Below are positions 21,198-59,130 of a DNA stretch of 64,000 nucleotides, in pieces; positions within the stretch are counted from its first letter, which is position 1; every line of letters starts with the position of its first letter. A program made the translations under genes and the position numbers. The notes beneath the pieces were generated by a model that was not told the origin of the DNA, ran no database searches, and saw only the letters and a list, made by a program, of their open reading frames with translations. The DNA is from Thermodesulfovibrionales bacterium. Its GTDB lineage: Bacteria > Nitrospirota > Thermodesulfovibrionia > Thermodesulfovibrionales > Dissulfurispiraceae. The stretch is taken from the NCBI GenBank assembly GCA_030017995.1, contig JASEGS010000002.1, positions 21,463-85,462 of the forward strand, in the 5' to 3' direction.

Positions 21198-21313
<116 letters not shown>

Positions 21314-21322
21314 TTAAAATAG

Positions 21323-49847: not shown

Positions 49848-51149
49848 ATGGAGAAAAATAAAATCAATGTAGGGATAATAGGATTCGGCACTGTCGGCAC
49901 AGGCGCTGCAAAGATATTGCTTGAAAACTCCGGAGTCATTAAAAAACGCACAGGAATTGATTTTGTCTTAAAGCGTATCGCAGACCTCGACATAAAAAGG
50001 GACAGAGGAATCAAGATTCCCCAAGGCGTTCTTACGACCGACGCAAACGCGATTCTTAATGATCCTGAGATAGACATAATTGTAGAGCTTATGGGTGGTA
50101 TCCGTCCTGCGAAGGACTTCATGCTCAATGCAATAAAAAACAAAAAGCATGTTGTTACCGCGAACAAGGCCCTTCTTGCGACAGAGGGAAATGAGATATT
50201 CGGCGAGGCTGAAAAGAACGGAGTCGAAGTAGGGTTTGAGGCGTCTGTTGCAGGAGGTATTCCGATAATAAAGGTCTTGAGGGAAGGGCTGGTTGCAAAC
50301 AATATAATAGCTGTTTACGGGATCATCAACGGCACATCCAATTATATTCTTACAAAGATGACGGATGAAAAGGTCGAATTCTCGGATGCGCTGAAGGAGG
50401 CGCAGAGGCTCGGCTATGCAGAGGCTGATCCTACATTCGACATAGAAGGCATTGACACAGCGCACAAACTTACAATCCTTTCGTCACTCGCTTACGGGAT
50501 TCCGCTTTCTTATAATGAGGTTTACAAAGAAGGCATTACAAAGATAACTGCTCAGGATATAGAATTCGCATCAGAGCTCGGCTATAAGATAAAACTGCTT
50601 GCGATAACAAAGCTGTCTAACGGAGCAATAGAGATGCGGGTGCACCCTACGATGATACCGAATGAATATCTGATCTCAAAGGTTGACGGAGTTTTTAATG
50701 CGGTTTATGTAGAAGGAGACACTGTTGGCTCGACCCTCTATTATGGAAGAGGAGCCGGAGATATGCCCACAGGAAGCGCTGTTGTAGCTGACATCGTTGA
50801 CATAGGGAAAAATATAGCGGCAGGTACCGTGCAGTCTGGATTAAGGATGCAGGATTCAGGACTCAGGATAAAGAAGATGGAAGACATAGAGAGCATGTAC
50901 TATTTCAGATTTTCAGCGATGGATGAACCGGGCGTGCTTTCAAAGATTTCCGGAATACTTGGCAATTACAATATAAGCATTGCGTCAGTTATTCAGAAAG
51001 GCAGGAGGCTTGGGGGCTCTGTCCCTCTTGTGGTTCTCACGCATACTGCAAAGGAGAGAGATGTGCTCAGCGCCGTGAAGGAGATAGATAACCTTCATAT
51101 TGTCTCTGACAAGACAATTTTTATAAGGGTGGAAGGCAAGGAAGAATAA
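49848..51149 (+). CDS. hom: homoserine dehydrogenase
   Basis: 433 aa. GIIGFGTVGTG NAD fold. Catalytic domain. C-terminal ACT domain. Confidence 0.93.
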   Translation: MEKNKINVGIIGFGTVGTGAAKILLENSGVIKKRTGIDFVLKRIADLDIKRDRGIKIPQGVLTTDANAILNDPEIDIIVELMGGIRPAKDFMLNAIKNKKHVVTANKALLATEGNEIFGEAEKNGVEVGFEASVAGGIPIIKVLREGLVANNIIAVYGIINGTSNYILTKMTDEKVEFSDALKEAQRLGYAEADPTFDIEGIDTAHKLTILSSLAYGIPLSYNEVYKEGITKITAQDIEFASELGYKIKLLAITKLSNGAIEMRVHPTMIPNEYLISKVDGVFNAVYVEGDTVGSTLYYGRGAGDMPTGSAVVADIVDIGKNIAAGTVQSGLRMQDSGLRIKKMEDIESMYYFRFSAMDEPGVLSKISGILGNYNISIASVIQKGRRLGGSVPLVVLTHTAKERDVLSAVKEIDNLHIVSDKTIFIRVEGKEE

Positions 51150-51150
51150 T

Positions 51151-51408
51151 ATGGGAGATGTAAAGCCAGACATTAAGATAGACAAAAAGATAAATATCAA
51201 GGGGCTTGTATGCCCCTATACATTTGTCAAAGCCAAGCTTGCAGTAGAAGATATGGAAGTTGGAGAGACGCTTGAGATACTTTTAGATTACGAAGAGGCA
51301 TCGAGGAGCATACCTAAGTCAATGGAAGACCATGGACAGAAGGTTCTTAAAGTTGAAAAGATAAATGACACTGACTGGATTATCCTCATTAAGAAGGAGA
51401 AGGAATAA
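51151..51408 (+). CDS. TusA/SirA-like sulfurtransferase
   Basis: 85 aa. GLVCPYTFVKAKLAVEDM matches the CPxP-type active-site Cys motif of the TusA family. Confidence 0.8.
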   Translation: MGDVKPDIKIDKKINIKGLVCPYTFVKAKLAVEDMEVGETLEILLDYEEASRSIPKSMEDHGQKVLKVEKINDTDWIILIKKEKE

Positions 51409-52209
51409 GTGGAATTCACAGAGGATCAGTTGCAGCGGTACAGCCGCCATATAATACTGCCAGAGGTAGGAGGAAAGGGGCAAAAAAAGATACTCAATGC
51501 AAAGGTGTTTATTGTGGGAGCCGGAGGCCTCGGATGCCCTGTGGGATATTACCTTGCTGCTGCCGGCATTGGAACAATTGGCATTATAGACAACGACACC
51601 ATTGAATTGAGCAATCTCCAGAGGCAGATAGCGCATAATACAGAGCGGCTCGGCATGCTTAAGATAGAGTCCGCAAAAAAAACCTTCGAGTCATTGAATC
51701 CGGATGTAAAAGTTATAGGCACAAAAGAGAGGATTTCAAAGGACAATATAAAAGACCTGATAAAGGACTATGACATTGTTGTTGACGGAAGCGACAATTT
51801 CCCTACGAGATACCTTGTCAATGACGCTTGCGTAATGATGAAAAAGCCCCTTGTAAGCGGTGCAATCCTGAAATTTGAGGGACAGGTTACGACGATCCTT
51901 CCGGGCGAAGGACATTGCTATCGCTGTCTCTTTGAAGAGATGCCTCCGGCAGGTCTTGTGCCTTCATGTCAGGAGGCAGGGGTTCTCGGAGCAATAACTG
52001 GAGTCGTCGGCGCTCTTCAGGCAACAGAGGTCTTGAAGCTGATACTCGGAAAGGGCGAGCCGTTAAAGAACACGCTTTTGATATACGACGCGTTGAGGGT
52101 GAATTTCAGACGCGTGAAGGTTCCCAAGAATCCAGACTGTCCGGTATGCGGAGCTCATCCCACTATCACAGAACTGCAGGACTACGACGCAGGATATTGC
52201 AGGATATAG
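51409..52209 (+). CDS. ThiF/MoeB-family E1-like adenylyltransferase
   Basis: 266 aa. RYSRHIILPEVG, GAGGLG nucleotide loop. Two CxxC pairs (CYRC, CPVC). No rhodanese domain. GTG start. Confidence 0.88.
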   Translation: MEFTEDQLQRYSRHIILPEVGGKGQKKILNAKVFIVGAGGLGCPVGYYLAAAGIGTIGIIDNDTIELSNLQRQIAHNTERLGMLKIESAKKTFESLNPDVKVIGTKERISKDNIKDLIKDYDIVVDGSDNFPTRYLVNDACVMMKKPLVSGAILKFEGQVTTILPGEGHCYRCLFEEMPPAGLVPSCQEAGVLGAITGVVGALQATEVLKLILGKGEPLKNTLLIYDALRVNFRRVKVPKNPDCPVCGAHPTITELQDYDAGYCRI

Positions 52210-52247
52210 CTTTGGTTTTAGAAATAACCGGATGTTTGCAATTTTTA

Positions 52248-52256
52248 TGTTATAAT
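52248..52256 (+). promoter_or_regulatory. extended -10 element ahead of the inserted small ORF
   Basis: TGtTATAAT at 52248..52256. No good -35. Confidence 0.3.
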
Positions 52257-52307
52257 TCAAGTATCCGCAATGGATAAAGAATATTTTTTAGAACTCGGCA
52301 TTGAGCT

Positions 52308-52586
52308 ATGGTTTATGTTTATTTCGCTGCCGAAAAGGGCGAAATAAAAGGCTTTGTCGTTAAGCTGTTATGCGAGTTTGAGGGCGAATGGCATGAAGTT
52401 CTCAGATATGACAGCGGCCATGACTGCCCGCATAAAGATATTCTCGATATCAAGGGGGCTGTTATTAGAAAGATATGGTATGAGTATCTCGATAACAGTC
52501 AGGCATTAACAATGGCGATAACAGAGATAAAAGGAAGCTATGAGTTTTACAAAGAGAGGTATATGAAATGGCTAAAAAGAAACTGA
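52308..52586 (+). CDS. hypothetical protein (92 aa)
   Basis: The only sizeable ORF in the gap between the E1-like and JAMM genes. No family recognised. Confidence 0.4.
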   Translation: MVYVYFAAEKGEIKGFVVKLLCEFEGEWHEVLRYDSGHDCPHKDILDIKGAVIRKIWYEYLDNSQALTMAITEIKGSYEFYKERYMKWLKRN

Positions 52587-52782
52587 AAGAAAAGGAAATA
52601 TTGGAAGTACTCAAAAACGAAGGTTTTCAGGAAGTCGGTGCAGTCCAAAAAAAGTCAGGGTGGTATAAAAAGGCATCAAAAAGGCCGGCTTGTTTGACAG
52701 GTAAGTTGCATAAAATACAAGTCTCATAGTTGAGAGCCCTTTCCCGATGGCGGATGACTCTTTAATAGGAGGAGATAGTAGG

Positions 52783-52875
52783 AGGTCTTTACTTTTGCTA
52801 TTTTATTTATATATCAAAGCAATCAGTGTTCTTCAGATCAGTTTCTCAGTAAAATTACAGCAAAAATAAAGACCT
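52783..52875. repeat. 17-bp inverted repeat pair bounding an AT-rich 59-nt segment
   Basis: AGGTCTTTACTTTTGCT (52783..52799) versus AGCAAAAATAAAGACCT (52859..52875), 16 of 17 complementary. Confidence 0.6.
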
Positions 52876-52907
52876 GACCCCATTGCCCTGCCCTGACCCC
52901 ATTGCCC
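52874..52907 (+). repeat. 15-nt direct repeat x2
   Basis: CTGACCCCATTGCCC at 52874..52888 and 52893..52907. Confidence 0.8.
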
Positions 52908-52940
52908 AGGGGATGTGTCCCTATTTTAAGCTGGGCGCGT

Positions 52941-53348
52941 ATGATAGATAAGTTTATGATTATACCTCAATACATCTTTCACGAGATGCTTGCTCATTGC
53001 AGGGCCGGCTATCCCAACGAAGCGTGCGGCATTCTTGCGGGCAAGTGCAATGAAGTCTCGAGGATTTATAAAATGACCAACACAGAGAAATCTTCTGTGA
53101 ACTACTTCATGGATTCAAAGGAGCAGTTTCAGGTCATGAAAGATATAAGAGCGAACAATATCAAAATGCTTGCTATTTTTCACTCTCATCCCTCCTCAGC
53201 AGCATATCCGTCTGCAAAGGATATAAGCCTCGCTTTCTATGAAGATTCTGTTTATATCATAGTAAGCCTTATGGATAAAGAGCCTGTGACGAAGGCCTTT
53301 TCTATAAAAGGGGGAGATATAAAAGAGGTAGAGGTTGTGGTAAAGTAG
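52941..53348 (+). CDS. JAMM/MPN+ metalloprotease (Mov34 family)
   Basis: EACGILAG and HSHPSSAAYPSAKD (JAMM H-x-H-x7-S-x2-D). Start at 52941 or 52956; the tracked start at 52902 lies in repeat DNA. Confidence 0.85.
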   Translation: MIDKFMIIPQYIFHEMLAHCRAGYPNEACGILAGKCNEVSRIYKMTNTEKSSVNYFMDSKEQFQVMKDIRANNIKMLAIFHSHPSSAAYPSAKDISLAFYEDSVYIIVSLMDKEPVTKAFSIKGGDIKEVEVVVK

Positions 53349-53414
53349 TTTAATTTTATGTCATGGTTAGAGTAAAATATCTTTTTATTTCAGAAGGCTC
53401 GTGAGGAGGTGCTT

Positions 53415-54650
53415 ATGGGATATGTGAACGGACTTAAATGCAGAGAGTGCGGCAGGGAGTATCCTGTTGATCCTATATATGTCTGCGAATTTTGCTTTGG
53501 CCCGCTGGAAGCGGTGTATGACTATAAGAATATAAAGAGGGTTCTCACAAGGAAAAGCATAGAGAAAAGGGAGAAGAACCTCTGGCGTTATAAAGAGCTT
53601 TTGCCCATAGACGGGGAGCCGCAGGTGGGCTTGAAGTCTGGCTTTACGCCGCTGATCAAGGCGGATAACCTTGCGAAGGTTCTCGGAATAAAAGAGCTGT
53701 ACATTAAGGACGATACGGTCGCTCATCCTACTCTCTCTTTTAAAGACAGGGTCGTTGCAGTTGCCTTTACAAAAGCAAAGGAGTTCGGATTTGACACTGT
53801 TGCGTGCGCATCCACCGGAAATCTTGCACATTCAGTTTCAGCGCAAGGAGCAAAGGCCGGATTCAAAAGATTTGTTTTTATCCCCGCCACTCTGGAGCAG
53901 AGTAAGATAGTCGCTTCACTTGTTTACGAGCCGAATCTGATCGCGGTTGACGGAAATTATGATGAGGTCAACAGGCTTTGCAGCGAAATAGCTAATAAAT
54001 ACAAGTGGGCATTCGTGAATATAAACATCAGGCCGTTTTATGCAGAGGGATCCAAGACTATGGGGTTTGAGATTACAGAGCAGCTCGGATGGGAATCGCC
54101 GGACAATGTTGTAGTGCCGTGCGCGAGCGGCTCCCTGCTTACTAAGGTATGGAAAGCATTTAAGGAATTCAAGGAAATAGGCATATTAAAAGAGCTTAAA
54201 ACAAAGGTATTTGCGGCGCAGGCTACAGGCTGCTCGCCGATATCAGCTGCCATAAAGAGCGGGACTGATGTTATAAAGCCTGTCAAACCAGATACTGTTG
54301 CAAAGTCGCTTGCCATAGGCAATCCTGCTGACGGCTTTTATGCGACTCAAGTTGTTAGAGAGACCGGAGGATATGGCGAGGATGTTTCAGACGATGAGAT
54401 CATAGAGGCTATGAAACTGCTTGCAAAGACAGAAGGCATATTTGCGGAGACTGCTGGCGGGGTAACCATAGCGACTACCATAAAACTGATAGAACAGGGC
54501 AAAATAGGCGGGAACGAAACCACAGTGGCATGCATTACAGGAAATGGCCTTAAGACACAGGAGGCGCTTTTAGGGCATACTGCAGAGGTGCATCATATAA
54601 AACCTAATATGAATGCGTTTGAAGAGATACTTGAAAAAATTGCAGATTGA
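53415..54650 (+). CDS. threonine synthase-like PLP enzyme with N-terminal zinc ribbon (MetM-like candidate)
   Basis: ATG 5 nt after GGAGG. CRECG...CEFCFG ribbon. PLP lysine motif PTLSFKDR. Second ThrC-family gene in the window, directly followed by a ThiS/MoaD-like gene. Confidence 0.85.
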   Translation: MGYVNGLKCRECGREYPVDPIYVCEFCFGPLEAVYDYKNIKRVLTRKSIEKREKNLWRYKELLPIDGEPQVGLKSGFTPLIKADNLAKVLGIKELYIKDDTVAHPTLSFKDRVVAVAFTKAKEFGFDTVACASTGNLAHSVSAQGAKAGFKRFVFIPATLEQSKIVASLVYEPNLIAVDGNYDEVNRLCSEIANKYKWAFVNINIRPFYAEGSKTMGFEITEQLGWESPDNVVVPCASGSLLTKVWKAFKEFKEIGILKELKTKVFAAQATGCSPISAAIKSGTDVIKPVKPDTVAKSLAIGNPADGFYATQVVRETGGYGEDVSDDEIIEAMKLLAKTEGIFAETAGGVTIATTIKLIEQGKIGGNETTVACITGNGLKTQEALLGHTAEVHHIKPNMNAFEEILEKIAD

Positions 54651-54702
54651 TGATTTTAGATTGCAGATTTTTTCAATCATAAATCATAAGTCTTAAATCT
54701 GA
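54640..54702. repeat. heptad-phased palindrome spanning the stop codon of the ThrC-like gene
   Basis: TTGCAGA TTGATGA TTTTAGA TTGCAGA TTTTTTC AATCATA AATCATA AGTCTTA AATCTGA. Confidence 0.8.
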
Positions 54703-54725
54703 AATTGGGAATGGGAGGTGATAAT

Positions 54726-55007
54726 ATGGCTGTAAAGATAAGAATTCCGACACCGCTTCAGAGAATGACTCAGGGAAAGGAAGAGGTCGAAGGCAAGGCC
54801 GGGACTGTGATTGATCTTATTAATGACCTCGATGCCAAATATCCGGGCATTGCCGAAAGAATATCCGAAGGCGGAAAGGTCAGAAGATTCGTGAATATTT
54901 ATGTGAATGAAGAGGATATAAGATTTTTACAAGCAGAGCAGACGCCGGTGAAAGACGGGGATGAGGTTTCCATTATCCCTGCAATAGCCGGAGGCAGTAT
55001 TATTTAG
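54726..55007 (+). CDS. ThiS/MoaD-family sulfur-carrier protein with a C-terminal extension after Gly-Gly
   Basis: ATG 7 nt after GGGAGG. 93 aa beta-grasp size. Ends ...VSIIPAIAGG-SII. Confidence 0.8.
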   Translation: MAVKIRIPTPLQRMTQGKEEVEGKAGTVIDLINDLDAKYPGIAERISEGGKVRRFVNIYVNEEDIRFLQAEQTPVKDGDEVSIIPAIAGGSII

Positions 55008-55063
55008 ACACGGAGAAGGGGTGACACGGAGAAGGGGTGAATGTCTCCGCATCTCCGCTTCCC
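55007..55063. repeat. 16-nt direct repeat x2 followed by its partial complement
   Basis: GACACGGAGAAGGGGT x2 (55007..55038), then TCTCCGCA TCTCCGCT TCCC. Confidence 0.8.
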
Positions 55064-55080
55064 AGAAAATGGAGGTTTTT

Positions 55081-55317
55081 ATGAAAATGCGGGTTAAATT
55101 AACTTTTCCCCAACATCTTATTAAAGAGCCTGTGTTATTTACCATGGCAAAAAAGTTTGATGTGATGCCCAATATAAGAAGGGCAAGGGTAACAGATACT
55201 GTCGGAGAGATGGTGCTTGAACTTGAGGGAGAAGAGGATAACCTCAAAAAGGGCATGCAAACCCTGAAGGACCATGGCATAGAGGTCGAACTGATAGAAG
55301 GAGACGTAATAGAGTGA
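55081..55317 (+). CDS. stand-alone NIL domain protein
   Basis: ATG 5 nt after GGAGG. 78 aa. MKMRVKLTFPQHLIKEPVLFTMAKKFDVMPNIRRARV... resembles the NIL (MetN C-terminal-like) fold. Confidence 0.7.
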   Translation: MKMRVKLTFPQHLIKEPVLFTMAKKFDVMPNIRRARVTDTVGEMVLELEGEEDNLKKGMQTLKDHGIEVELIEGDVIE

Positions 55318-55430: not shown

Positions 55431-56534
55431 ATGGACATTGGAGAGTGTAATAGTTCGAGAATTATTTGGAAGGGGATTATTGAAGAATATAGAGAATTCT
55501 TTCCCGTTAGTGACAAAACACCGGTTGTAACTCTATCTGAAGGAAACACGCCTTTTATAAAGGCAGTTAATCTGCCGCAGAAGTTAGGCATTGATATTGA
55601 TTTATACCTTAAATTTGACGGCGCCAATCCCACTGGTTCTTTTAAGGACAGGGGGATGACTTTAGCCATCTCCAAGGCTGTTGAGTCAGGTTCAAAAGCG
55701 GTTATATGTGCATCAACTGGCAATACGTCTGCTTCTGCAGCAGCCTATGCAGCACGGGCAGGAATAAAGGCAATTGTTGTTATCCCAGAGGGCAAGATAG
55801 CAATGGGGAAGCTTGCTCAGGCGCTGGTGCATGGCGCCTATGTATTGCAGATTGATGGTAATTTTGATGTTGCTTTTAAAATGGTAAGAGAGGTGGTGGA
55901 GCAATATCCTATAACCCTCGTTAATTCTTTAAATCCCTTTAGGATAGAAGGGCAGAAGTCAGCAGCTTTTGAGGTCTGTGATCAGCTTGGATGCGCCCCG
56001 GTTTATCATGCGCTGCCAGTAGGCAATGCAGGGAACATCACAGCTTATTGGAAGGGATATAAGGAATATAGGAACGCTGGAGTAATTCAAAGACTGCCGA
56101 AGATGCTCGGCTTTCAGGCAGCAGGCGCTGCTCCTATAGTTTTTGGGCACCCAGTGGAAAAACCTGAGACTATTGCAACTGCCATCAGAATTGGAAATCC
56201 TGCAAGTTGGAAAGGGGCGGTCTCTGCGAGGGATGAATCAGGAGGCCGTATAGATGCAGTAACTGATGATGAAATATTAAGTGCGTACAAGCTCATAGCA
56301 ACATCTGAAGGGATATTCTGCGAGCCTGCATCAGCAGCATCTGTGGCAGGTGTTATAAAATTATATAAGGAAAGTTATTTTGAAAAGGCCAGAGAAGATG
56401 AAAGGACAATTGTATGCACTTTAACAGGCAATGGTCTTAAAGACCCTGATACAGTATTTAAGGTTGCTGACGGTGCAATAAAGGTTAAAGCGGAATTCAA
56501 TGAGGTAAGAAAGATAATAGAGAGGATACTGTAA
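55431..56534 (+). CDS. thrC: threonine synthase
   Basis: 367 aa. [17 protein letters not shown]-lysine motif. Short ThrC type. Confidence 0.93.
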
Positions 56535-56689: not shown

Positions 56690-57910
56690 GTGAAATATAT
56701 AGTTTTGATAGGCGACGGGATGGCTGATAGACCCATTGAGGAACTTGGCGGTCTTACTCCTTTGCAGGAGGCAGTTACCTTTAATATGGACAAACTTGCA
56801 AAGGAGGGGGTAATCGGCAGGGTGCGGACTATTCCCGAAGGATTTCATCCCGGCTCTGATATCGCCAATTTAAGCATACTCGGTTATGACCCTGCGAAAT
56901 ATTATACAGGAAGGGCTCCTCTTGAAGCTGCAAGCATAGGCGTGAGTCTTTCTGATAATGATGTGGCATACAGATGTAATCTCGTTACTCTTAAATTCAA
57001 TGAGGATAGGACACGTGCTGTGATGGACGATTACAGCAGCGGGCATATAACTACAGAAGAAGCAAGGGAACTTATTAATGCGATTAAAACTGAATTGGGG
57101 AGTGAAGACTTAGCTTTTTATCCCGGCGTGAGTTACAGGCATTTGATGGTCTGGAAAAATGGAAGCCATGATATAGAATGTATGCCTCCTCATGACATCC
57201 TTGAAAAAGATATTACCGATTATTTGCCTGTAGGAAAAGGAGACAATGTCTTGCGCGACCTGATGAGGCGTTCTGTTGACATAATGGAAAAACACCCTAT
57301 AAACAAAAAACGGCTGGAGAGTGGGAAAAAGCCTGCAAACAGCATATGGCTATGGGGGCAGGGGAAGAAGCCCAGCCTGCCTACATATGAGGAGAAATAC
57401 GGTTTAAGGGGGGCGCTCGTATCAGCAGTTGATCTGACAAAGGGGCTTGGGATATATGCAGGATTTGAGATACTCAAGGTGCCTGGAGTTACGGGTTGGC
57501 TTGATACCAATTATTCCGGAAAGGCGGAATACGCACTTAACGCCCTTAATCATGTTGATTTTGTCTATATCCATGTGGAGCCGCCTGACGAGGCAGGGCA
57601 CTCAGGAAATTATAAAAATAAGATAAAGGCAATAGAGGACTTTGATGCGCTTGTGGTTGGCCCTGTGATGGATGGACTCAAAGAGAGATTTGAGGAATAC
57701 CGTATACTTCTTATGCCTGACCACGCAACGCCGATTAAGGTAAGGACGCACACGGACGAGCCTGTGCCGTTTGTAATTTATGACAGCAGATGGAAAAAGA
57801 ACAATGTGGCCGTAACATATGATGAGTCAATAACAGCGAGAAAGGATATCGTTGTGATCGAGGAAGGATATAAGCTGATGGATTATTTTATCAGGGAGGT
57901 ATCTGAATAA
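56690..57910 (+). CDS. cofactor-independent phosphoglycerate mutase family protein (ApgM-like); possible non-orthologous homoserine kinase
   Basis: 406 aa. [15 protein letters not shown] start of the archaeal-type iPGM/phosphonopyruvate-hydrolase-like family. Located between thrC and lysC. GTG start. Confidence 0.85.
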
Positions 57911-59130
57911 TGCTTATTGTTCAGAAGTACGGCGGCACATCTGTTGCTAATGCAGAGAGAATAAAGTCTGTTGCAGAGCGTGTTTCCAAAGCCGCTAAGC
58001 AGGGCAATAAGGTAGTTGTCGTAGTCTCGGCGATGGCCGGTGAGACCGATAAATTAATCAGCCTTGCTCATCAGATATCATCAAATCCTAAGGAAAGAGA
58101 GATGGACCTTTTACTTTCTTCAGGAGAAAGAGTTACGAGTGCATTGACAGCAATGGCTGTGGAGGAGCTTGGACATAAGGCAATGGCATTAACAGGAAGG
58201 CAGATGGGGATAGTAACTGACACTGTCCATACAAAGGCAAAGATAGAGAAAATTACAGGAGAGCGTGCAAAAAAAGCGCTCGATTCCGGCTATGTGGTCG
58301 TAGTCGCGGGCTTTCAGGGCATTACCGAGTCTGAGGATGTAACGACTCTCGGAAGGGGAGGCTCAGACCTCTCGGCAGTTGCAATCGCTTCTGCGCTCGA
58401 TGCCGACATGTGCGAGATATATACGGATGTTGACGGAGTTTATACCGCAGACCCCCGCATTGTGCCTGAGGCTAAAAAGATGGATAAAATTTCATATGAA
58501 GAGATGCTGGAGCTTGCAAGTCTTGGCTCAAAGGTGCTCCAGACACGGTCTGTTGAATTCGCTATGAAATACAATGTGCCTGTGGTTGTCAGGTCGAGCT
58601 TTAACGACAATCCCGGCACGCTTGTTACGAAGGAGGATGAAGATATGGAACATGTTGTTGTTTCGGGCGTTGCGCACGATTTGAATCAGGCAAAGATTAC
58701 TGTCATGGGAGTGCCTGACAGACCCGGGATCGCAGCAAAGCTATTTAGAGGCATTGCGGATGCGAATATAGGTGTTGATATGATAGTCCAGAATATAAGC
58801 AGCGACGGAAAGGCCACGGATATATCTTTTACAGTTCCAAAGACAGACAGCAAAAAGGCATTGAAGCTCACTCAGGACATTGCAAAGGAGCTTGAGGCAA
58901 GGGGCGTTGACCTTAGAGAGGACATAGCTAAGATATCCGTTGTGGGAGTCGGCATGAGGACTCATTCGGGGGTTGCGGCGCAGATATTCGATACGCTTGC
59001 GAAGCACGGCGTGAATATAATGGCGATAAGCACATCCGAGATCAAGGTCTCCTGTCTTATCGAGGCAAAATATACGGAGCTTGCGGTAAGGGTGCTGCAT
59101 GACTCCTTTGAACTGGAAAAGGCTGCATGA
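57910..59130 (+). CDS. lysC: aspartate kinase
   Basis: 406 aa. VQKYGGTSV, kinase domain, two C-terminal ACT domains. Confidence 0.95.

Follow-up and report, generated by a model that had tools for sequence, protein, structure and literature searches.

A module of six genes in the genome of a Thermodesulfovibrionales bacterium very probably constitutes a complete MetM/MetO-type pathway, wherein a protein thiocarboxylate supplies the sulfur for conversion of O-phosphohomoserine (OPH) to homocysteine, and its genes form part of an aspartate-family operon (hom ... thrC, homK, lysC). The module occupies positions 51151-55317 of a 64,000-nucleotide stretch of DNA (GenBank assembly GCA_030017995.1, contig JASEGS010000002.1, positions 21,463 to 85,462 of the forward strand), which we refer to in its entirety as the window. 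The genome from which it derives is 1.70 Mb in length, 96.9% complete, and belongs to a member of the Nitrospirota near the genus Dissulfurispira. An earlier note, prepared from the letters of this DNA, had listed the genes as TusA, E1, JAMM, ThrC-like enzyme, carrier and NIL, had placed them between hom and a thrC, ApgM-like and lysC group, and had proposed that they carry out OPH-dependent homocysteine synthesis. Domain searches bear out both the order and the placement, with all six genes present on the plus strand and every domain call upheld. The proposed function is supported by the phylogeny and the residues of the ThrC-like enzyme and by the absence of alternative routes.

The assignment centers on a 411-amino-acid pyridoxal phosphate (PLP)-dependent enzyme of the ThrC family (53415-54650, plus strand; PALP domain PF00291, 230 bits) that carries a zinc ribbon (CxxC...CxxC, a NinF-type match) at its N-terminus. 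For comparison, we surveyed 80 loci that encode a relative of this enzyme with at least 56% identity, and constructed a tree of 90 rows from 40 enzymes encoded at related loci, ThrC proteins from the context of such loci, representatives of clusters formed at 50% identity, and a pair of actinobacterial proteins. In this tree, the window enzyme is placed on the 59-row side, with a Shimodaira-Hasegawa-like approximate likelihood ratio test (SH-aLRT) value of 90, and this side takes in all 40 related-locus enzymes (34 of them with a MetO seen nearby) as well as the actinobacterial pair, one member of which (P0126) shares 51% identity with the window enzyme. The ThrC encoded within the same window, which is 37% identical to this enzyme, resides in the opposite group with 100% support. 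Thus, a phylogenetic comparison of the kind that the earlier note had recommended places the 411-amino-acid protein among enzymes that are MetO-adjacent and controlled by SAM riboswitches, and apart from bona fide threonine synthases.

The residues of the two window proteins differ in a manner consistent with this division. The Schiff-base lysine K110, which is embedded in the motif SFKDR, is invariant in two family alignments. The ThrC segments N-x-N-P-x-R and G-N-A-G-N, which we take to form the phosphate site used in product-assisted addition of water, are replaced in the window enzyme by N-x-R-P-x-Y and A-S-G-S-L, such that N168, R171, G198 and N202 of ThrC correspond to R206, Y209, A237 and L241. 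Two further replacements (T381 for D338, and V113-V114 for G75-M76) are also evident, and most of these changes are 90-100% conserved across the MetM side of the tree. The same clade includes a natural ThiF-PALP fusion (P0211) in which an E1 is joined to the enzyme. We considered whether the zinc ribbon might serve as a marker for MetM, and rejected this idea because two CxxC pairs are also present in 22 of the 29 ThrC-side proteins. More distant relatives in the ThrC family, with 37-41% identity, carry unusual regulatory fusions to a LeuA allosteric/dimerization domain or to a PadR DNA-binding domain (P0235, P0255; P0194, P0202, P0232).

The genomic setting leaves few other means for making homocysteine. 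The earlier note had found no metA, metX, metB or metY gene in the cluster, and profile searches extend this result to the whole genome, where MetA (PF04204), MetX (TIGR01392) and the COG1900 family (PF01837) give no match, and where the family that includes MetB, MetC, MetY and MetZ (PF01053) yields no true member, but only partial matches of 28 bits. Across the order, the MetM-like gene is carried by 19 of 21 genomes (76-100% identity), whereas the two genomes that do not carry it both have PF01053 enzymes. For 14 of the 21, the MetM-like route is the only one found. Two CysK/M-like genes are encoded on other contigs of the window genome, and therefore cysteine synthesis appears to be covered outside the cluster.

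A link to methionine that is independent of gene names comes from riboswitches for S-adenosylmethionine (SAM), which precede many members of the enzyme clade. In the Actinoplanes derwentensis representative, a SAM riboswitch (RF00162, 72.7 bits) ends 10 nucleotides ahead of the start codon, and a further eight loci submitted to Rfam analysis, drawn from Verrucomicrobiota, Planctomycetota, Acidobacteriota and other groups (at least five phyla), all carry RF00162 with scores of 72-96 bits. Over the full survey, an nhmmer profile detects such an element upstream in 34 of the 80 loci.

The carrier protein (54726-55007, plus strand; ThiS domain PF02597, 67 bits) is encoded 75 nucleotides downstream of the MetM-like gene as a 93-amino-acid beta-grasp precursor of the MetO/CysO type. 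A profile of the carrier family, built from fused relatives, matches CysO of Mycobacterium tuberculosis (E 1e-28), the fold match has template modeling scores of 0.91-0.93, and a fused homolog is 43-46% identical to CysO. The carrier gene adjoins the MetM-like gene in 70 of the 80 loci, and this pairing is kept across about 20 phyla. The window precursor ends in AIAGG-SII, whereas the corresponding tail is GG-K in D. thermophila and GG-SC, GG-AFIM or GG-RGI in other relatives. The residues SII must come off before adenylation can occur, and the only candidate for the trimming enzyme is the product of the JAMM gene of the module (52941-53348, plus strand), a Mec-like JAMM/MPN+ metalloprotease (PF14464, Prok-JAB, 82 bits) with the motifs NEACG and HSHPSSAAYPSAKD that is encoded by the sole JAB gene of the genome. 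JAMM genes also reside beside carriers that already end in GG, such as those of Nitrospira loci, which fits a second, Mec-like role for this protease in product release.

The E1 adenylyltransferase (51409-52209, plus strand; 266 amino acids) belongs to the ThiF/MoeB type (PF00899, 296 bits over residues 11-246) and displays the motif GAGGLG, the zinc cysteines CYRC/CPVC, and PSCQEAG. The MoeZ model NF005902 covers this protein only at model positions 14-273 of 392, with 317 bits relative to a cut-off of 647, and the rhodanese domain is missing. Therefore, this E1 is not a MoeZ in the strict sense; it is predicted from its sequence to do the job of MoeZ while falling outside the MoeZ family. 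The gene immediately upstream encodes an 85-amino-acid TusA-like protein (51151-51408, plus strand; PF01206, 73 bits; motif GLVCPYT), which is a plausible donor of sulfur. Other contigs of the genome encode a second E1 (on C5) and a second small ThiS (on C6) that could serve cofactor synthesis, and the carrier set described here looks to be dedicated to its own cluster.

Related loci exhibit some variation on this set of parts. In Nitrospira-type loci (L056, L062, L070, L077 and L083 from Nitrospiraceae; L032, L042 and L046 from other Nitrospirota), genes for a CysM-like enzyme, E1, MetM-like enzyme, carrier, NIL, a second E1 and JAMM are clustered. Since CysM-like and MetM-like genes share these clusters, one carrier may supply the synthesis of cysteine as well as that of homocysteine, in the company of two E1 paralogs. 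Two contexts in which carrier and NIL are fused (L101 and L102) place ThiI-like, DsrE-like and Rrf2 genes around those for the MetM-like and CysM-like enzymes, JAMM, carrier-NIL and E1, which suggests that varied sulfur-delivery front ends have been attached to the same carrier.

In the pathway that we propose for this operon, homoserine dehydrogenase (Hom) and HomK, an alternative to homoserine kinase, would produce OPH, of which ThrC would draw part into threonine and thereby compete for this intermediate. The carrier would be translated with its ...AIAGG-SII terminus, and the JAMM protease would strip the residues SII and expose Gly-Gly. The rhodanese-less E1 would then adenylate the exposed C-terminus, which would be converted to a thiocarboxylate with sulfur that probably comes either from a TusA persulfide or directly from sulfide. 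The MetM-like PLP enzyme is predicted to catalyze a gamma-replacement on OPH with the carrier thiocarboxylate as the nucleophile. By analogy with CysO/CysM/Mec, the resulting thioester would rearrange to an amide, and hydrolysis by the JAMM protease would free both homocysteine and the carrier. Methylation of homocysteine would take place outside the cluster and would probably fall to a divergent MetE-like core enzyme encoded on contig C28.

Much of this chemistry has a published precedent. As relayed by two later papers (PMC13759103, PMC12172450), Hasebe 2024 (AEM 90:e01247-24) describes how Streptomyces albulus MetM, together with the thiocarboxylate of MetO and with Mec and MoeZ, makes homocysteine from OPH. 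GapMind 2026 (PMC13759103) treats MetO, Mec, MoeZ and MetM as the steps of one standard pathway, warns that annotations often mistake MetM for threonine synthase, and applies the pathway to the prototroph D. thermophila T55J, for which a diverged Mec (A0A7G1H0A1) is predicted from gene context. The suggestion that the present cluster is a new combination is therefore sustained for the NIL partner and not for the core. To the extent that the S. albulus system is summarized in these sources, it resembles that of the window in placing a ThrC homolog beside a ThiS/CysO-like carrier, with JAMM and E1, for the conversion of OPH to homocysteine. It differs in that a SAM riboswitch resides upstream of metM, whereas the window has none, although many members of the clade do. 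Moreover, the window has an E1 without a rhodanese domain that is preceded by a TusA-like gene, its OPH would come from HomK rather than from ThrB, and all parts are gathered, with an extra NIL gene, into a single operon that also holds hom, thrC, homK and lysC.

The closest counterpart is the cluster of D. thermophila T55J, a member of the same Nitrospirota family, which has the same order (hom-TusA-ThiF-JAB-PALP-ThiS-NIL-PALP-HomK...LysC) and proteins that are 71-90% identical to those of the window (TusA 88%, JAMM 71%, MetM-like enzyme 88%, LysC 88%). GapMind has no step for the NIL or TusA proteins of this cluster. The features that go beyond the published system are the NIL partner, including its occurrence in a carrier-GG-NIL precursor, the presence of a rhodanese-less E1 together with TusA, and the full integration with hom, thrC, homK and lysC.

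Three more distant systems share portions of this architecture. The M. tuberculosis CysO/CysM/Mec system has a carrier of the same CysO family, thiocarboxylate chemistry of the kind that we propose here, and release of the amino acid by a JAMM protease, but its enzyme is of the CysM family and uses O-phosphoserine, whereas the window enzyme is of the ThrC family and is predicted to use OPH to yield homocysteine. In the HcyS/HcyD/HcyF/MetY system of Wolinella succinogenes, a JAMM protease cuts a C-terminal extension off the carrier, and the thiocarboxylate feeds homocysteine synthesis, there by MetY, a PF01053 enzyme that acts on O-acetylhomoserine. No such enzyme is present in the window genome. 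The COG1900 (HcyBio) system of methanogens and Desulfovibrio likewise has NIL attached to a non-canonical homocysteine route, although it employs a NIL-ferredoxin and aspartate semialdehyde, whereas the NIL protein of the window has no ferredoxin domain, the genome has no COG1900 gene, and the window enzyme is predicted to use OPH.

Several points weigh against the proposed pathway, which is predicted from comparative genomics. Membership of the window enzyme in the MetM group is based on clade, context and riboswitch, with the riboswitch-controlled Actinoplanes gene as a stand-in for the S. albulus MetM (A0A059WBP2); a search that began from an actinobacterial homolog returned Micromonosporaceae alone. 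The MetM side of the tree is supported by an SH-aLRT value of just 90 in what was a quick analysis. No SAM riboswitch is found in the window, in D. thermophila or in the Nitrospirota relatives; we regard this element as a regulatory trait and not a defining one for MetM. The missing rhodanese domain of the E1 is likewise a departure from the established system. We examined the idea that TusA stands in for this domain, but TusA genes are present in 5 of 17 loci with a short E1 versus 1 of 5 with a long E1, a difference that provides no statistical support, and we only infer the participation of TusA.

Another concern is that the NCBIfam thrC model TIGR00260 assigns the window enzyme 297 bits, well above its cut-off of 167, and that all database sources label its relatives ‘threonine synthase’. 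Moreover, a member of the clade from Microcystis, encoded beside a metO-like gene, is reported to have threonine synthase activity in vitro along with deaminase activity, and no evident role as MetM in vivo (PMC12172450). These data would be expected if the 411-amino-acid protein were a second threonine synthase, with the carrier, E1 and JAMM serving some other purpose. We consider this very improbable. A bona fide ThrC that belongs to a separate, fully supported group is encoded three genes downstream, and it scores 328 bits with the same model, which evidently fails to separate MetM from ThrC. In addition, the phosphate-site residues differ between the two proteins, the relatives are preceded by SAM riboswitches and not by threonine-related elements, the carrier gene is a near-constant neighbor, and one natural protein fuses the E1 to the enzyme. 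Without this protein, the genome would be left with no homocysteine route.

Two other explanations retain the carrier chemistry and assign it a different product. Synthesis of cysteine from O-phosphoserine in the manner of CysO/CysM/Mec, or of both cysteine and homocysteine, would suit the close relationship of the carrier to CysO, and at many loci a CysM-like gene of 310 codons accompanies the carrier, E1 and JAMM genes. Cysteate synthases are ThrC homologs able to use O-phosphoserine, but the window enzyme matches the corresponding model (TIGR03844) weakly. The CysM-like genes occur in addition to the MetM-like gene at such loci and never in its place, and in the window genome the CysK/M-like genes are on other contigs, with none in a cluster that sits amid genes for making OPH. 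Since riboswitch control of the relatives also points to methionine, a cysteine product is highly unlikely. Use of the carrier by a CysM encoded at another site would be compatible with our main interpretation. The possibility that the carrier serves thiamin, molybdopterin, tRNA thiolation or a thio-metabolite, with the ThrC-like gene as an incidental neighbor, can be given almost no weight. It draws on the best NCBIfam matches, which are MoeB and the SAMP-activating E1 for the E1 and MoaD and SAMP1 for the carrier, but these fall below equivalog cut-offs (as do both of the E1 matches) or just reach a subfamily cut-off. The cluster contains no thiG, moaE or ncsA-type gene, the genome has the second E1 and ThiS noted above, and a chance association would not be expected to recur in about 20 phyla. 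OPH-dependent homocysteine synthesis accounts best for these observations.

The last gene of the module (55081-55317, plus strand) encodes a stand-alone NIL protein of 78 amino acids (PF09383, 64.6 bits relative to a cut-off of 24) that is the only NIL in the genome. Its position outside the characterized system, as the earlier note had surmised, is corroborated by its absence from the published MetM/MetO steps and by a literature search of limited coverage that returned no paper linking NIL to MetM/MetO. Among the 80 loci, 44 include NIL, 36 as a separate protein whose gene is usually directly after that of the carrier, and 8 as a fusion to the carrier. The separate form is present in all 11 Nitrospirota loci and also in Verrucomicrobiota, Chloroflexota, Acidobacteriota, Methylomirabilota, Binatota and others, whereas 36 loci, including all those of cyanobacteria, are without NIL. 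In the fused form, the carrier sequence ...PAIAGG is followed by a lysine-rich linker of 4-25 residues and then by NIL, and a JAMM gene is present at each of the seven fusion loci that are not truncated. A separate search for ThiS-NIL fusions returned 2976 matches, the best 120 of which all contain both ThiS and NIL, and four of four fusion contexts that were chosen without reference to MetM adjoin a PALP enzyme of 409-419 amino acids. These associations lead us to regard NIL as a genuine third partner for the carrier and the enzyme. No natural fusion of MetM with NIL was present among ten long homologs. The ‘MoaD-related protein’ of Thermus thermophilus (1v8c) was considered as a solved structure of a carrier-NIL fusion and set aside, since only its N-terminal half matches the profile. 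A tandem NIL-NIL protein of 183 amino acids is encoded in a Nitrospinaceae locus (L036:14481-15032) near genes for a MetM-like enzyme, carrier, E1 and TusA.

Structural comparisons provide clues regarding the role of this protein. The NIL half of a fused homolog adopts an ACT-like fold that superposes on the C2 domain of the methionine importer subunit MetN (PDB 3dhx, 3tui, 3tuz) with a root-mean-square deviation of 1.4 A over 77 columns. N31 of the window protein aligns with N295 of Escherichia coli MetN, whose change to alanine abolishes L-methionine binding. Of the 36 stand-alone NIL proteins, 29 retain this asparagine, as do all 67 of the fusions that were aligned. The NIL proteins described here differ from MetN C2 in being free proteins of 78 residues, or fusions behind the Gly-Gly of a ubiquitin-like (Ubl) protein, with a ligand site that is predicted, and also in having a loop that is shorter by four residues and a conserved acidic C-terminal tail (VEPIExxVIE). 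The window NIL has zero cysteines, and therefore it is not a persulfide relay.

Our tentative first choice, based on these sequence resemblances, is that NIL may be a regulatory subunit that binds methionine or homocysteine. A more specific version, which we find attractive but doubtful, holds that NIL is dedicated to ubiquitin-like sulfur carriers, senses one of these compounds, and exerts feedback on the protein level by regulated maturation, such that ligand-bound NIL would block either cleavage of carrier-GG-NIL by JAMM or use of the carrier. The fused precursor would be cut by the JAMM protease much as ubiquitin is made from fusions, and in the window the ligand control would be exerted in trans, with the GG-SII precursor as its target. 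If true, this would amount to regulated maturation of a prokaryotic ubiquitin-like protein.

An alternative, which likewise seems rather unlikely to us, is that NIL is not a sensor but a docking or scaffold subunit, or a chaperone, that binds the carrier tail or the enzyme, which would make it resemble MoaE and ThiG. The carrier-GG-NIL fusions are common, and known Ubl fusions such as MoaD-MoaE and ThiS-ThiG join a carrier to its functional partner (PMC1779556, and PMC8832034 on DRJAMM). The COG1900 homocysteine system, although unrelated, also counts a NIL-ferredoxin among its subunits. Furthermore, NIL co-occurs with SAM riboswitches rather than replacing them: the riboswitch is found at 14 of the 36 loci where NIL stands alone, at 3 of the 8 where it is fused, and at 17 of the 36 that have no NIL. 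This distribution rules out our notion that NIL substitutes for the riboswitch, and the lack of any relationship between the two across the loci also counts against a regulatory role. An AlphaFold model of a natural carrier-NIL fusion is confident for both domains (predicted local distance difference test value of 89) but shows no fixed interface or orientation (predicted template modeling score of 0.53), a result that weighs against docking as well as against our own reading. Docking is also difficult to reconcile with retention of the methionine-binding asparagine and with the want of a cysteine for sulfur relay. Nearly half of the loci do without NIL, and the Streptomyces MetM/MetO system, as summarized in PMC13759103, is described without it; both points count against docking, and the latter also against our own reading. 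On balance, a ligand-binding regulatory subunit remains the role we would choose.

If our interpretation of the pathway is correct, homocysteine synthesis is the proper context for thousands of genes that are annotated as ‘threonine synthase’ or ‘molybdopterin synthase sulfur carrier’ in Nitrospirota, Verrucomicrobiota, Planctomycetota, Chloroflexota, Acidobacteriota and Cyanobacteriota. These groups are mostly uncultured, and metabolic models that overlook the pathway would class them as methionine auxotrophs. The stakes are evident in the 14 genomes of the order for which this is the sole recognizable route. The NIL partner could also shed light on the regulation or assembly of a protein-thiocarboxylate pathway, and the carrier-GG-NIL proteins offer a bacterial parallel to ubiquitin fusion precursors.

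The operon that surrounds the module begins with hom (49848-51149, plus strand), which encodes a homoserine dehydrogenase with a C-terminal ACT domain (NF004976, 553 bits; PF00742, PF03447). Its stop codon is 1 nucleotide ahead of the tusA start, and no more than 0-1 nucleotides separate hom from tusA and tusA from the E1 gene. Downstream of NIL are thrC (55431-56534, plus strand; TIGR00260), homK (56690-57910, plus strand) and lysC (57910-59130, plus strand). The ApgM-like product of homK, an alternative to homoserine kinase, scores 567 bits with the ‘proposed homoserine kinase’ model TIGR02535 (cut-off 446), a family that complemented E. coli thrB (GapMind 2026, PMC13759103). The lysC open reading frame is assigned to aspartate kinase, the first step of the aspartate-family pathway, on the basis of the syntenic D. 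thermophila gene, whose 88% identical product has AA_kinase and ACT domains. No convincing plus-strand terminator was found inside the cluster.

The gene list of the earlier note stands, but it overlooked an insertion of about 730 base-pairs between the E1 and JAMM genes (52210-52940), and four of its start codons required correction. The likely true starts are 52941 for JAMM, 53415 for the MetM-like enzyme, 54726 for the carrier and 55081 for NIL. The insertion interrupts an otherwise tight operon, is not part of the pathway, and contains an open reading frame of 92 codons (52308-52586, plus strand) that matches DUF7718 (PF24839, 82 bits). The corresponding spacer in D. thermophila is 80 nucleotides long and lacks this insertion, and a homologue of the DUF7718 frame is present in none of the 80 related loci.

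With regard to the final step toward methionine, neither MetH (PF02574) nor MetE/Mes (PF01717) gives a match in the window genome; across the 21 genomes of the order, MetH is missing throughout, and MetE/Mes gives a strong match in just one. This apparent want of any methionine synthase is largely a problem of sensitivity, since a divergent MetE-like protein of 341 amino acids, reached via a weak PF01717 match in a relative, is encoded outside the window on the minus strand (C28:11935-12957). This protein has the motifs IHCCG...DAFE...PSCG, no Pfam match at 0.01, and a 19-bit match to the archaeal methionine synthase model NF002119. Its gene shares an operon with tmk, holB, metG and a PSP1 gene, and is present as a single copy in all 21 genomes. 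Judging from these sequence features, this protein probably represents a divergent form of the core (Mes-type) methionine synthases, as that term is used in PMC7857596. Finally, the sole match at the Rfam gathering level within the 64-kb window is a 5S rRNA gene at positions 21198-21314 (RF00001, 103 bits).

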